A stretch of 64,000 bases of DNA, taken from the NCBI GenBank assembly GCA_965215185.1, contig OZ244034.1, forward strand, positions 1,344,001-1,408,000, written 5' to 3'. The translations under genes were made by a program, and so were the position numbers. The notes beneath the pieces are model-generated. The model did not search any database, was not told the origin of the DNA, and saw only the letters and a list, made by a program, of their open reading frames with translations. Positions 15,095 to 20,061 of this stretch are shown here, piece by piece. Source of the DNA: Acidimicrobiia bacterium. GTDB lineage: Bacteria > Actinomycetota > Acidimicrobiia > Spongiisociales > ZC4RG35. Each line of letters opens with the position of its first letter. Within the stretch, counting starts at the first letter, position 1.

Positions 15095-15628
15095 CTACAG
15101 TAGGGCTCGAATCTGGGAGGCGGCGTCGTCCAACTCTGTTATGTGGTCGTCCATAGCACCCGGCACACCGCTCAAGCTGGACTTCACCACCAAAAGAACT
15201 ATCCGGTATCGCTCAATCTCGGCCAGCATAAGTTGCGCGGCCCGTTCTCTTTTGCGATCTAATTCCCCCAAAGATATGGTGGAGGCCCCCGCACGGGCAT
15301 CCTGAGGCGACGGCCGTGGTTGGGCCAATCCGGCGGTTTCGTTGCGAGCAGCAGCTACCAACTGGGATGCGCTCTCTTGGGCTTCCTCAATGATCCGACG
15401 GGATTCCGTACGGGCCTGCGACAGCACCCGGGCAGCATCCTCATTGTCGGCCGCCGGGACTCCCCTCTTCACTTGGGCGATGATCCTGTCTCGTTCGGCC
15501 AAGAGTTCGTCATACTCTTTGAGCGAAAGCGCCACTTCGTCTAGGAACTCATCAACGTCTTCGAGGTGGTAACCGCGCAATGCAGTGCGGAAGAACTTTT
15601 CTTGGATGTCATCAGGGGTGAGGGGCAT
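15095..15628 (-). CDS. divIVA: DivIVA domain protein
   Basis: MPLTPDDIQEKFFRTALRGYHLEDVDEFLD followed by coiled coil; after yggT. Confidence 0.88.
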   Translation of the reverse strand: MPLTPDDIQEKFFRTALRGYHLEDVDEFLDEVALSLKEYDELLAERDRIIAQVKRGVPAADNEDAARVLSQARTESRRIIEEAQESASQLVAAARNETAGLAQPRPSPQDARAGASTISLGELDRKRERAAQLMLAEIERYRIVLLVVKSSLSGVPGAMDDHITELDDAASQIRALL

Positions 15629-15663
15629 ATTAAACCAATCTGTTGGCCACAACTCTGGGACTA

Positions 15664-16019: not shown

Positions 16020-16529
16020 TCAAGTATTGATAGAGGACGGCCACATCCCGATTTTGGCCAAGCGCATCTTCTCGCTGGCTGAAACTGTGACTCTCGGCGG
16101 CTTGACCATCACCAACCCGTCGCCCACCTGGTTGACCTCACCCTGGTTGTAGCTGATCAGACCGGTCGCATAGTAGACAACCCCCTGGGCCACCTCCGTG
16201 GAAAGGAACCGCAAATCCAACATCACCGGAACCCCCGCCCTGTACCAAGAGGTGAGATGTGGACAATCCTGAAAGCCGTCTACCTGCAGAATCTCGGTCT
16301 CCACATCAACAGGAGAGGGCTTGGAGCGCTCTCTCAGCGTCAAAGGCGCCTCGGTTCGCAGCATCGAGGAGGACGAGGGCGGGTCCATCGGATTGCTGGA
16401 GATCAGACGAACGTTGCCCGAGGAGGTGGGGGTCGCCGGCGAGGTCATTGCGGGAGACGGCGTCCAAGCGTCCTCGTCTTCCACCAGCCCCAAGAAGTCC
16501 CACACTTTACCCATGATGTTGTCACTCAT
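16020..16529 (-). CDS. sepF: cell division protein SepF (divergent)
   Basis: N-terminal amphipathic helix (KVWDFLGL), linker, core GVPVMLDL..ATGL..GEVNQVG..VKP; lies between yggS and yggT. Confidence 0.82.
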   Translation of the reverse strand: MSDNIMGKVWDFLGLVEDEDAWTPSPAMTSPATPTSSGNVRLISSNPMDPPSSSSMLRTEAPLTLRERSKPSPVDVETEILQVDGFQDCPHLTSWYRAGVPVMLDLRFLSTEVAQGVVYYATGLISYNQGEVNQVGDGLVMVKPPRVTVSASEKMRLAKIGMWPSSINT

Positions 16530-16531
16530 GA

Positions 16532-17179
16532 TTATTCACCAAAGACAGCTCGGCCCACGCGCACCATGGTAGCCCCTTCCTCTACTGCTACCTGGTAATC
16601 CTCTGTCATCCCCATCGATAGCTCCTTCACCGCGGGATATCGGGCGCTAACCTGCTCGGACAATTGGCGAAGACGTCGGAAAAAGGGGCGGGCCTGCTCG
16701 GAATGATCCACCCTGGGCGCCATGGCCATCAGGCCCCGCACTTGCGCACCCTCTTCCTGAACCGTGTGCACTAACTGCTCAAGCTGCTCGGGTGCCACCC
16801 CGTGCTTTTGGGGCTCATTGCCGATATTTACCTGAGCCAGGGCAGGTATTTGCGAGGACCCGGTGCGGGCCCAAACCCGAGCCAGACTCGGTCTATCCAT
16901 AGAGTGGAGAAGGGCAACCGTCGAACGAACCATTCTCACCTTGTTGGTTTGCAGGTGACCCACAAAATGCCAACGAATGTCACTGGGTAACTCCCCCACC
17001 TTGGAGATCAGTTCCTGTGCCCGGTTTTCACCGAAGTCCCTTACTCCTTGATCGTAGAGTTTCCTGATCTCAGGTACCCCTCGACCTTTGGTAATCACTA
17101 TAAGGGTTACATCCTCAGGCCGCCGGCCCACCTTACTCGCCGCCTCGGCCACCTTTTCCAAGACCCGGTTGTAGCTCAT
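16532..17179 (-). CDS. yggS: PLP homeostasis protein YggS
   Basis: VITK, DFGENRAQE, WHFVGHLQTNK, LSMGMT, GATMVRVG. Confidence 0.95.
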   Translation of the reverse strand: MSYNRVLEKVAEAASKVGRRPEDVTLIVITKGRGVPEIRKLYDQGVRDFGENRAQELISKVGELPSDIRWHFVGHLQTNKVRMVRSTVALLHSMDRPSLARVWARTGSSQIPALAQVNIGNEPQKHGVAPEQLEQLVHTVQEEGAQVRGLMAMAPRVDHSEQARPFFRRLRQLSEQVSARYPAVKELSMGMTEDYQVAVEEGATMVRVGRAVFGE

Positions 17180-17802
17180 TGGGCAATCCAACCCAATGCC
17201 GCCATCCGGCGGGGAGTGCCGTCACGGCGGTGGGAGAAACTGCCCGGTTGGTGGAGAGTGCATCTTTGGGACCACCAGATCGGAAGGTCGCCGAGTTGCT
17301 CTGCCACCGCCCCGCCCAAATCAACAGACGGTCGTCCCTGCCGGGAAAGGGTGACCTGCGGAAGGAATCGGCGAGCCACCTGGGGGCCAACCTCAAAACA
17401 ACACGGCCCGATGAAAGGACCCACCGCCGCCCAGTCAAGGTTGAGTCCCACCGACCGCATCGCCTTCACCATGCCACCAACCACCCCCGCCGCGATCCCC
17501 CGCCATCCGGCATGGGCCACTCCCACTCCCGCGGTTCCGCCCACCACCACCGCCACACAGTCAGCGGTCACCACCGCTACCACCAGCCCGGAAACCCTGG
17601 TGAACAGCGCATCCGCTTCCATCCCCACCGGGCCCGGACCCTCCACCTCCACCACCCGGTTTCCATGCACCTGATGGACGGTGGCCCACTCTGCAGAAAC
17701 ACCCAACGCAGCGGAAACCACCCCCCGGTTCGCCTGCTCCCGTTGATCTCCATCGGACTCAATGGTAAAAGCCGCTCCTGGCCACGGAAGAGGTTGGATC
17801 AT
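17176..17802 (-). CDS. pgeF: PgeF/YfiH peptidoglycan editing factor (purine nucleoside phosphorylase / laccase-domain family)
   Basis: QVHG, ADAL, TADC, AHAGWRG, GPFIGPCCFEVG, FSHRR. Confidence 0.92.
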   Translation of the reverse strand: MIQPLPWPGAAFTIESDGDQREQANRGVVSAALGVSAEWATVHQVHGNRVVEVEGPGPVGMEADALFTRVSGLVVAVVTADCVAVVVGGTAGVGVAHAGWRGIAAGVVGGMVKAMRSVGLNLDWAAVGPFIGPCCFEVGPQVARRFLPQVTLSRQGRPSVDLGGAVAEQLGDLPIWWSQRCTLHQPGSFSHRRDGTPRRMAALGWIAQ

Positions 17803-18875
17803 TTTCTCCCGGAGGAACTGATGGGGATGTCAAAAACGATACCCGATCCAGGGGAACTTGTACTCCTGCCCGATGATCCGGCGCCCGGGGAGACAGCCGC
17901 CCCACGACGGGCCGAGGGCCGATCGAACCCGGCCGCGATCACCGTAACCTGCATCTCCTCGCCCAAAGCGTCGTTTATGATGGCTCCAAAGATTATGTTG
18001 GCTTCGTCGGACGCCAACTGCGTTATGGTCTCGGCGGCCAGATGGGCTTCATGGAGAGTCATCTCCCGAGAGCCCGCCACCGACAACAGAATTCCCGATG
18101 CCCCGTCCATGCTGATCTCCAATAGCGGGCTGGAGATAGCCCGTTTGGCAGCCTGTAAAGCGCGGTCCTCTCCACGGGCTTTTCCTACTCCCAAAACCGC
18201 GGAGCCGCCGTCGGCCATCACGGTCTTGACATCAGCGAAGTCCACATTGATGAGACCGGTGGTGTTGATCATATTGGTGATCCCGGCCACCCCGTCCATC
18301 AACACCTCGTCGGCCATGCGGAAGGTCTCATTGATGGGAGCCGAGGGATCCCCCACCTCCAGGAGCCGATCGTTGGGCACCACGACCAAGGTGTCAACCT
18401 GCTCCCGCAGTTCACTGATTCCCTTTTCGGCGATGGAAGACCGGACCCTGCCCTCGAATCCAAACGGTCGGGTCACTATTCCCACGGTTAGCGCACCCAG
18501 ATTCCGGGCCACTTCCGCCACCACCGGCGCCGCACCGGTGCCGGTGCCGCCTCCTTCACCGCAAGTCACAAAAACCATGTCGGCGCCGCGCAATATGTCC
18601 TCTAATTCGTCTCGATGGGCGTCGGCCGCCTTTCGGCCCACCTCGGGATTCGCCCCCGCCCCCAGGCCCTTGGTCAACTCTCCCCCGATTTCCAACTTGA
18701 CCATGGCGTCGGAAGCCATCAGAGACTGGGCATCCGTGTTCAGAACCACGAATTCAACTCCCTGCAAACCGGATTCGATCATGCGGTTGATCGCGTTGAC
18801 GCCGGCGCCCCCCACTCCGATAACTTTCAGCACCGCCACATAGGCACTGGCCGGCTCCCAAATGATATCTTGCAT
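17799..18875 (-). CDS. ftsZ: cell division protein FtsZ (atypical C-terminal peptide)
   Basis: GVGGAGVNA, NTDAQ, GLGAGANP, GGGTGTG, NVDFAD; ends FDIPISSSGRK. Confidence 0.98.
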   Translation of the reverse strand: MQDIIWEPASAYVAVLKVIGVGGAGVNAINRMIESGLQGVEFVVLNTDAQSLMASDAMVKLEIGGELTKGLGAGANPEVGRKAADAHRDELEDILRGADMVFVTCGEGGGTGTGAAPVVAEVARNLGALTVGIVTRPFGFEGRVRSSIAEKGISELREQVDTLVVVPNDRLLEVGDPSAPINETFRMADEVLMDGVAGITNMINTTGLINVDFADVKTVMADGGSAVLGVGKARGEDRALQAAKRAISSPLLEISMDGASGILLSVAGSREMTLHEAHLAAETITQLASDEANIIFGAIINDALGEEMQVTVIAAGFDRPSARRGAAVSPGAGSSGRSTSSPGSGIVFDIPISSSGRK

Positions 18876-18902
18876 TGACTCGCCCCCTTAACAGGTTTTT
18901 TG

Positions 18903-18976
18903 AGGTTCAACTAGAAGGTTGATACACAAGAAACCAAATGTCAAATTGGGAATATCAACCTTAACTGGAAGGTGAA
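18903..18976 (-). promoter_or_regulatory. ftsZ internal promoter with two MerR-type (FtsR-like) boxes
   Basis: Minus TTGACA (18939-44)-17 nt-CAACCT; perfect 10-bp inverted repeat AAGGTTGATA 18915-24 / TATCAACCTT 18953-62. Confidence 0.55.
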
Positions 18977-20061
18977 CTTGGGGAATTCTCGGAGGCCTCC
19001 CGATACACCGCCGGCCTAAGGGCGGAGAAGAGGTTGATGACCGAACCGGGATCGGTGTGCCTGTCCACCAGCACCCCTAACACATGGGCCTTTTCCTCCA
19101 GGTCCGTGGCTCTTCCCAACCTCACGATCCGCCCCGCCACCACGGCGGTGAGCTGATTGCCATGGACTTCAACCACCGTTCCCACCCGGAGATCAGGTCG
19201 CAAGCTCTCCAGGAAAGCCAGAGCCGCCGCAACGGGAGGATGGGGGAGATCCAATACCGCGCCGGCCAAACCGGTGATATGCGGTATAAGTTGTTCGGGG
19301 CCCACATCAAGTTCCACCCCATCCAATGACAGAGCCCGCCATCCCTTACCGGTCAGCCCCCACGCCACCGGGTACCTTTCCTCAACTGTCACCCGAATCG
19401 TGTTAGGCCATTCCTTCTCCACCTCGACCTCAGCGACCCAAGGATCTGACAGCACGGCTTTCTGCAATAGTTCTGTATCGATCGATATCATGGGCGCGCC
19501 TGCTGTCACTCCTGCCCCCTCAATCTGCTGGGCAGCGGAGGAGGACACTTCTCCCGTCACCACTACCTCCCGTACCGCCAGATAGGGAGAATACACCAAC
19601 CACATTCCGATTCCCGCCACGCTCATCACCAACAGCATCCAAACGGCCCGTTTGAATGCCTTCCTCTCTTCCTTCTCGCGAACCTTTTGGGCTCGTTCCG
19701 TGATGCGGGGATCTACCTCCGGTTTGGCGTCCTTGCTCTTCATCCTTGTGAACAGGAGTGCGACCGGGCCTTTCTTCGGACTGGCCTTTGCCCGAAAACC
19801 AGTGCGGGTGACTAGCTTGGGGTTCGATCTCGGTTTGAGAGTCAGATGGCCCGACTGCGCGTCAGCTGCCCGGCCCATTCCACTCTCAGGACGCCGACCT
19901 GCGACCGGCCTAACCACTGTGACGGCGGAAAGATCTTCTCTTCCCCCATCGCCAGCGCTCGGAGCCGGCCCTGACTTATGGGATGAGGCCTTGAATGACG
20001 CCTTCTTCCACCGGCGCGTCCGGCGGCCCCTGGCGGTTCCAATGGGGTGCTTCCTTTTCAT
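18961..20061 (-). CDS. ftsQ: cell division protein FtsQ/DivIB
   Basis: Long basic N-terminus, one TM, POTRA domain (PWVAEVEVEKEWPNTIRVTVEER); between murB and ftsZ. Confidence 0.88.
   Translation of the reverse strand: MKRKHPIGTARGRRTRRWKKASFKASSHKSGPAPSAGDGGREDLSAVTVVRPVAGRRPESGMGRAADAQSGHLTLKPRSNPKLVTRTGFRAKASPKKGPVALLFTRMKSKDAKPEVDPRITERAQKVREKEERKAFKRAVWMLLVMSVAGIGMWLVYSPYLAVREVVVTGEVSSSAAQQIEGAGVTAGAPMISIDTELLQKAVLSDPWVAEVEVEKEWPNTIRVTVEERYPVAWGLTGKGWRALSLDGVELDVGPEQLIPHITGLAGAVLDLPHPPVAAALAFLESLRPDLRVGTVVEVHGNQLTAVVAGRIVRLGRATDLEEKAHVLGVLVDRHTDPGSVINLFSALRPAVYREASENSPSSPSS

Follow-up and report, generated by a model that had tools for sequence, protein, structure and literature searches.

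At its extreme C-terminus, after a disordered linker, FtsZ carries a short conserved peptide, the C-terminal conserved region or C-terminal peptide (CTC/CTP, the 'grappling hook'), together with a C-terminal variable part (CTV), and this peptide is usually taken as an almost invariant landing pad. Its Asp, Pro and Phe are called 'fully conserved' in a review (PMC9939409), and Pro372 and Phe374 of Bacillus subtilis FtsZ are reported to be 'totally conserved', the alanine mutant of either residue abolishing the binding of SepF (PMC3418248). In the SepF-FtsZ complex of Corynebacterium glutamicum (6SAT/6SCP), residues K125 and F131 of SepF are described as touching the FtsZ tail (PMC7118173). According to a report that includes the archaeal pair (7AL2; PMC8178401), the N-terminal half of the tail sits in the alpha2/beta3 groove of SepF and the part after the proline points, in bacteria, to the alpha-alpha dimer interface; archaeal FtsZ tails are without the bacterial motif and bind mainly one SepF monomer. 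The present study concerns the FtsZ of an uncultured bacterium of the class Acidimicrobiia, encoded in a stretch of 64,000 nucleotides (the window; contig OZ244034.1, positions 1,344,001 to 1,408,000) in which all coordinates below are given and in which ftsZ, pgeF and sepF all lie on the minus strand. This FtsZ lacks the phenylalanine of the docking peptide. The findings as a whole are probably best explained by a lineage-specific variant of the peptide, held by purifying selection and fixed in one uncultured genus of Acidimicrobiia. On the sequence comparisons presented here, the best reading is a conserved lineage trait that appears to have changed together with SepF, and not a frameshift, a gene fusion or a sequencing error.

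FtsZ tails in the genus and the class

The ftsZ gene occupies positions 17799..18875 of the minus strand, stop codon included, and is the sole FtsZ match of the genome. Its product of 358 amino acids belongs to the FtsZ family, with the Pfam Tubulin/FtsZ GTPase domain (PF00091, 161.5 bits) and the FtsZ_C domain (PF12327, 110.8 bits). From 17843 to 17799 the 3' end reads GGT ATC GTT TTT GAC ATC CCC ATC AGT TCC TCC GGG AGA AAA TGA, and the protein ends in ...GSGIVFDIPISSSGRK*, that is G-S-G-I-V-F-D-I-P-I-S-S-S-G-R-K-stop. These codons, the end FDIP-ISSSGRK, a stop-free -1 frame reading HQFLREK-MI into pgeF and the TGA/ATG overlap of the two genes are all exactly as the initial annotation of the window had described them. 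The codons for G-I-V-F-D-I-P (17823..17843, minus strand) form the invariant core of the variant peptide, and those for I-S-S-S-G-R-K (17802..17822, minus strand) its variable polar/basic end, which stands in place of x-F-[VL]-Q-G.

A search of related genomes found one FtsZ in each of 41/41, and the loci of the best 30 of these 41 were read; they represent 17 species of the genus, the window genome included, and 13 outgroup genera of the same family or order. In all 17 species of the genus FtsZ ends in GIVFDIP plus 5-7 residues, polar and then basic. None of them has a Phe or an aliphatic pair following the Pro, the residue two places after it (P+2) being S, V, A, T or G. Across the 17 species none of the seven GIVFDIP codons is constant (4, 2, 4, 2, 2, 2 and 3 codon types, respectively), and since every change is synonymous, the zero frame is under purifying selection. 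All 13 outgroup genera end in (D/E/G)-I-P-x-F-V-(Q/R)-G-stop, a count that becomes 12/12 when the row from an unpublished genome (L025, genome G027) is left out.

The same comparison was extended to the class, where FtsZ was matched in 101/101 genomes and the 3' ends were taken from 80 of the 100 genomes other than the window's own. The 20 genomes dropped comprise 15 more members of a 23-member genus, two already read, one more of a sampled genus, one with a partial match and one in which the match lay at a contig end. All 80 end in [ILV]-P-x-F-[VLIM] followed by 1-2 residues, so that P-x-F-[VLIM] stands at the C-terminus in 93/93 other genomes of the class (13 + 80) versus 0/17 in the genus. 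The tails outside the genus mostly end in F-V-Q-G* or F-L-K/R*. The residues ahead of the proline differ as well: the 10 amino acids before [ILVM]P include a single acidic residue in 17/17 species of the genus, whereas the 93 others have a mean of 5.0 (range 2-8), and the net charge of the last 25 amino acids is +1.5 in the genus versus -5.3 in the others. Like the canonical peptide, that of the genus is short and conserved, forms the extreme C-terminus behind a disordered linker and has an Asp-Ile-Pro core (17/17) with a few variable, partly basic residues after it. It differs in having neither Phe at P+2 nor a hydrophobic residue at P+3 nor the preceding acidic run, and in having an invariant G-I-V-F ahead of D-I-P. 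The variant tail is real, genus-specific and under purifying selection, and the class bears out the earlier remark that a division system whose FtsZ tail has no F-L dyad behind DIP is out of the ordinary.

Searches over larger collections point to the same genus. When 185,579 species genomes were scanned for the pattern G[SP]GIVFDIP, 16 stretches came up, of which 13 were confirmed, and 13/13 of these are FtsZ ends of the genus. The corresponding metagenome scan gave five stretches, two of which pass tblastn, and no intermediate form of the tail was found among them; one of the two is identical to a genome already counted. The other, on contig L157, was rejected as a chance match: the open frame around it is unrelated and does not encode FtsZ, and tblastn confirmation of such short queries (9 residues) is therefore not fully reliable. 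A search of a representative library was set aside as a survey and replaced by the direct reading of loci, truncated, fused and read-through predictions being abundant in it; the last 30 residues of its best 150 matches held [ILVM]PxF in 80 cases, another hydrophobic residue in 13 and neither in 57, many of these 57 being T-P-x-F-type variants or artefacts. No published description of a Phe-less tail was found in the literature on FtsZ and SepF, as covered by titles and abstracts and with most subscription journals outside the coverage.

The initial annotation had also listed an assembly error as a source of the tail. The stretch does contain two short homopolymers (CCCC and AAAA) in which such an error, or a homopolymer error in sequencing, could arise. 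However, Logan contigs of four runs from four studies span 17600-18000 with no inserted or deleted letter, a result that refers to assembled contigs rather than raw reads and would leave room for rare length variants. One of these runs is identical and may be the source, and the others carry 3 to 8 single-base changes. Moreover, the reading frame is common to the 17 species, with synonymous variation, and the tail type is found in 17/17 congeneric species. The representative of a 98%-identical database cluster also has the same last 14 residues as the FtsZ of the window; it came from a tail-only search (region 315-358) of a collection of 5.8 billion proteins, in which only 1 of 165 candidates matched because a query of 44 amino acids gives weak E-values. 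An error in the assembly can thus be set aside with near certainty.

Origin of the tail and the shifted reading frame

A phylogenetic tree was based on PgeF, the YggS-like protein, YGGT, DivIVA and the FtsZ core (1021 columns), with the FtsZ linker and tail removed and the root placed on eight outgroups of the same family. The basal split within the genus separates (G006,(G005,G008)) from the rest, in which G010 groups with G007 and G015 (weakly, 84/69) and the window genome (G000) with the large remaining clade. Tails of the type D-I-P-T-V are found in G006, G005, G008 and G010, that is on either side of the basal split, and the F-L tail of the alternative frame is therefore probably derived and not a relic. 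In the tail of G005, T-V-S-A-Q-G-R, the ancestral T, V, Q and G are still read in frame, and in G010 the number of residues after the Pro equals that of the outgroups. Since Phe is absent from 17/17 species, its loss is most simply a single event on the stem of the genus.

The ancestral tail would have consisted of an acidic run followed by L-D-I-P-x-F-V-Q-G*. On the genus stem the Phe codon at P+2 would have been lost in frame, D-I-P-T-F-V-Q-G becoming D-I-P-T-V; on the same stem the acidic run would have gone too, and the I-V-F triplet directly before D-I-P and the basic end gained. Later drift would have led to Ser/Gly-rich tails, the tail of the window genome being one such probable later derivative, and the translated frame would be the annotated zero frame.

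In the -1 frame the same bases read CAT CAG TTC CTC CGG GAG AAA ATG ATC CAA CCT, or H Q F L R E K M I Q P. This frame is without a stop and is that of pgeF, and the junction peptide predicted from reading it into pgeF is ...DIPHQFLREKMIQP.... As a coincidence, an alternative-frame FL[RK] beside DIP is rare a priori. The window has 85 open frames that are 200 amino acids or longer; their two alternative frames amount to 61,050 residues, among which FL[RK] occurs eight times. The naive chance that it stands at one of the first four positions past the Pro, both frames counted (eight positions), is about 0.1%, compared with 0.3% for F[LVIM][RKQ]. The F-L is read because the zero-frame AGT TCC TCC (Ser-Ser-Ser) gives TTC CTC when shifted, and R-E-K-M because the purine-rich GGGAGAAAATG (GGGAGAAA) directly precedes the pgeF ATG and is in the pgeF frame by construction; this stretch may be a Shine-Dalgarno site, with a short spacing to the ATG. 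Only 2/17 species of the genus, the window genome and that of locus L003, have F-[LVIM]-[RKQ] in the -1 frame, and others read D-L-Q-L-Q-E-N, D-F-R-Q-P-Q-D, H-R-L-C-C-Q-A and similar. The HQFLREK reading is a by-product of the Ser codons TCC TCC and of the pgeF leader and ATG, without function, and it shows that an eye-catching motif in an alternative frame can arise from codon bias and the start region of a neighbouring gene.

The initial annotation had proposed that -1 slippage on the C-CCC run formed by ATC CCC (17823..17826, minus strand) yields a fusion, FtsZ-DIPHQFLREK-PgeF, with a near-canonical docking motif. The -1 frame is indeed open from this site into pgeF, and a P-site tRNA-Pro could re-pair on C-CCC. 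Yet the run is present in only 3/17 species, most of the others having ATC CCG, and as noted the alternative-frame motif is found in two. No X-XXY-YYZ heptamer occurs, no Rfam family matches within 17000-19000, and the 86 nucleotides past the run fold with a minimum free energy of -25.6 kcal/mol (z -0.46), as well as which 54 of 200 shuffled sequences fold. The Phe would moreover fall at P+3 instead of P+2. Unlike programmed -1 frameshift sites, the ftsZ-pgeF junction has no conserved slippery site, stimulatory RNA structure or conserved trans-frame product. The C-CCC run is judged not to be a functional element and programmed slippage to be very improbable; the motif in the alternative frame is a matter of coincidence, and a frameshift finds no support. 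The comparison of the relatives' 3' ends at the DNA level, for which the initial annotation had named a tail shared by relatives without FLR in the alternative frame as the sign of coincidence, gave that outcome, the tail type being common to the genus and the alternative-frame FLR mostly absent.

The -1 frame F-L could alternatively be a relic of compensating frameshifts, in which two insertions or deletions between the Pro codon and the stop shifted an ancestral F-[VL] out of frame; the initial annotation had suggested two insertions into an ancestral DIPQFLREK*. The low naive chance of FL[RK] by DIP agrees with such a history, as do the readings (F/L)-L-(R/Q)-E-K in the -1 frame of G000, G007 and G015. 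In L003, furthermore, CTTCCTCCAGG stands where the outgroups have CTTCGTCCAGG (F-V-Q-G), with 10 of 11 bases identical in a shifted frame. Against these observations stand the absence of Phe in 17/17, most simply due to one stem event, the in-frame D-I-P-T-V of the earliest clade (G006, G005, G008) and of G010, the Q-G that G005 retains in frame and the post-Pro length of G010, which is that of the outgroups. An FLREK ending occurs in 0/93 outgroups; TCC is simply how Ser is encoded at this place, and the bases ahead of the pgeF start are AGGAG-like. Compensating frameshifts are accordingly considered unlikely. The proposed DIPQFLREK* ancestor in particular does not agree with the absence of FLREK outside the genus or with the presence of T-V tails in both branches of the basal split, the L003 match being the one remaining hint in its favour.

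SepF and the docking interface

The sepF gene (16020..16529, minus strand) is present in a single copy and encodes 169 amino acids with the Pfam SepF domain (PF04472, 34.5 bits; cut-off 27). The AF2 model of its core has a pLDDT of 88.4, and the best PDB matches of the model are the C. glutamicum structures 6SCP/6SAT (E 2.5e-7, TM 0.74/0.85), so that both the domain and the fold are those of SepF. SepF was found in 41/41 related genomes, whereas the FtsA-specific SHS2 domain, MinC and DUF3071, which we take to be the SepH family, were found in 0/41, a tally that includes the unpublished genomes G027 and G038. The only match to the FtsA-family profile PF14450 in the genome is a 340-amino-acid MreB-like protein followed by an MreC-like gene (locus L061, 1042..2906; G000:C1, about 2.97 Mb), and therefore a rod-shape system is present and FtsA is not. 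SepF is the only known partner of the FtsZ tail that was detected.

SepF was aligned in 29 rows, 16 from the genus and 13 from the outgroups; genome G010 was left out, its sepF (L047, contig C83) being interrupted by masked or unknown letters that give a run of X. A column was counted as a fixed difference when at least 15/16 genus rows and at least 12/13 outgroup rows agreed within their group. By this measure the genus and the outgroups have different fixed residues at 18 columns of the SepF core. On the secondary structure of the model, 15 of these columns belong to alpha1, alpha2, the alpha2-beta3 loop or beta3. Residues were given C. glutamicum numbers by aligning them without gaps to chain 6sat_A, whose construct spans 63-152 (PMC7118173). 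The contact residue K125 corresponds to Lys in 12 and Arg in 1 of the 13 outgroups but to Gln in 16/16 rows of the genus. At four further sets of positions the outgroups are as C. glutamicum and the genus differs: R106 and R107 are replaced by Gln and Gly, D110 and F111 by Tyr and Tyr, L119 by Asn and M123 by Val. In the SepF of the genus the Gln that stands for K125 is residue 134, and the two Tyr are residues 119 and 120. SepF has thus been altered at positions that are otherwise deeply conserved, one of them a contact known from experiment, and the changes in FtsZ and SepF are probably coupled. The N-terminal SepF segment MGKVWDFLGLV is conserved and the position of the gene in the cluster is kept. 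A complex prediction for the SepF core dimer with the 45-amino-acid FtsZ tail scored 0.07 (mark 0.32) and weighs neither way.

The extent of the change can be seen from mean identities, taken in turn between the genus and its same-family outgroups, between those outgroups and other families, and among the same-family outgroups themselves. They are 36.9%, 60.1% and 74.9% for the SepF core and 70.0%, 79.5% and 85.2% for the FtsZ core, compared with 50.4%, 52.5% and 53.8% for PgeF and 53.1%, 55.6% and 56.7% for the YggS-like protein. YGGT gives 43.4%, 43.5% and 62.5%, and DivIVA (15095..15652; loci L031-L060) gives 35.3% and 47.9%, with no third value, from only five outgroup rows covering at least 70% of the query. 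Within the genus FtsZ is 94.1% and the SepF core 81.6% identical. SepF and FtsZ are thus accelerated on the genus stem and the adjacent PgeF and YggS-like protein are not, YGGT being mixed; the picture is one of a burst of change on the stem and of constraint afterwards.

In the proposed mechanism G-I-V-F-D-I-P would still be a putative SepF docking site, with the N-terminal half of the peptide in the alpha2/beta3 groove, and the Phe contact at the dimer interface would have been given up. SepF may have co-evolved, its Arg-Arg, Asp-Phe and contact Lys becoming Gln-Gly, Tyr-Tyr and Gln, and the docking mode may have shifted from electrostatic and Phe-pocket contacts to more aromatic and hydrophobic ones. 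The C. glutamicum complex (PMC7118173) resembles this system in the SepF fold and in the logic of the gene neighbourhood, and C. glutamicum is likewise an actinobacterium without FtsA that uses SepF as an anchor. It differs in that the genus has Gln for K125 and has Gln-Gly and Tyr-Tyr for the alpha2 Arg-Arg and Asp-Phe shared by C. glutamicum and 13/13 outgroups, and F440 of its FtsZ has no counterpart in the genus. In the archaeal pair, as reported, the GID motif of FtsZ lies in the groove of one SepF monomer (7AL2; PMC8178401), and there too the tail is without the P-x-F-L half and relies on its N-terminal half. This likeness may be one of functional analogy; homology of the motifs is not claimed, and the genus, unlike the archaeal pair, keeps the Pro. 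That the genus has naturally rewired the near-universal FtsZ-SepF interface into an orthogonal pair, held together chiefly, like the archaeal pairs, by the alpha2/beta3 groove, is about as likely as not.

A different fate of the tail would be that it no longer docks SepF and has been taken over by membrane contact through I-V-F and the basic end, by a lineage-specific partner or by filament bundling, SepF having diverged for unrelated reasons. The residue lost is the Phe whose alanine mutant is reported to abolish SepF binding in B. subtilis (PMC3418248), the SepF contact Lys is gone as well, and the tail is hydrophobic and then basic. However, D-I-P, the heart of the canonical motif, is invariant, SepF retains its fold, its N-terminal MGKVWDFLGLV and its place in the cluster, the SepF core remains 81.6% identical within the genus, and no other known anchor was detected. 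A loss of docking is thus rather improbable.

Several points weigh against the view that a docking variant arose in frame and changed together with SepF. The changes of FtsZ and SepF fall on a single stem branch, and they represent one event, a co-variation without statistical replication. DivIVA is apparently accelerated and YGGT is mixed, so that what lies behind the faster change may be a broader drift among division proteins instead of a specific rewiring of the interface. The mapping of contacts covers K125 and F131, a part of the 6SAT contact list, and the equivalent of F131 is Val or Ile in genus and outgroups alike, which makes the C. glutamicum pocket an imperfect template for the class. 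Supports around the basal split within the genus are moderate (96/88, 90/76 and 84/69), and an in-frame origin is therefore favoured, not proven. The L003 match of 10 of 11 nucleotides is explained only by chance or codon bias, which keeps compensating insertions and deletions alive at a low probability.

In a genus that lives without the Phe of the docking peptide, and in whose sole detected anchor the matching surface has been altered, nature provides an experiment on how an essential protein-peptide interface can be replaced while cells go on dividing. The genus offers a ready-made candidate for an orthogonal FtsZ-SepF pair in swap work, and it calls for caution in annotation and in drug or peptide designs that assume a universal motif.

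The ftsZ-pgeF junction

The pgeF gene (17176..17802, minus strand) encodes a protein of 208 amino acids that belongs to the PgeF/YfiH family; its Cu-oxidase_4 domain (Pfam PF02578, 138.9 bits, residues 17-203) spans the full length, and the protein serves as the unaccelerated control in the comparison of identities above. The cluster has the order ftsQ, ftsZ, pgeF, yggS-like, sepF, yggT and divIVA, all on the minus strand. The ftsZ stop (TGA, 17801-17799) and the pgeF start (ATG, 17802-17800) overlap in an ATGA at 17799..17802, the usual arrangement for translational coupling of a stop and a start. This overlap, as (A/G)TGA, is present in 30/30 loci of the nearest relatives. Among the 80 further genomes of the class, 46 have ATGA or GTGA at the ftsZ stop and the others CTGA, GTAG, ATAG, ATAA, CTAG or CTAA; with CTGA, GTAG or ATAA at this place in many other families, the ftsZ-pgeF coupling is not class-wide.

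In a predicted protein of the representative library (P0006, 619 amino acids) the FtsZ domains are followed by part of a Cu-oxidase_4 domain (profile positions 36-140) and by an end rich in Arg, Ala and Pro that resembles nonsense. Frame errors in the assembly of another high-GC actinobacterium seem to have produced a read-through here, rather than evolution a natural FtsZ-PgeF fusion.

Run X9 and a single contig of X6 show a strain variant at position 17800, a plus-strand C>T change. It changes the ftsZ stop from TGA to TAA and the pgeF start from ATG to ATA. The pgeF frame offers no ATG, GTG or TTG upstream, because a stop sits directly before H-P-H, and therefore in this strain pgeF would start at a non-canonical codon or farther downstream.

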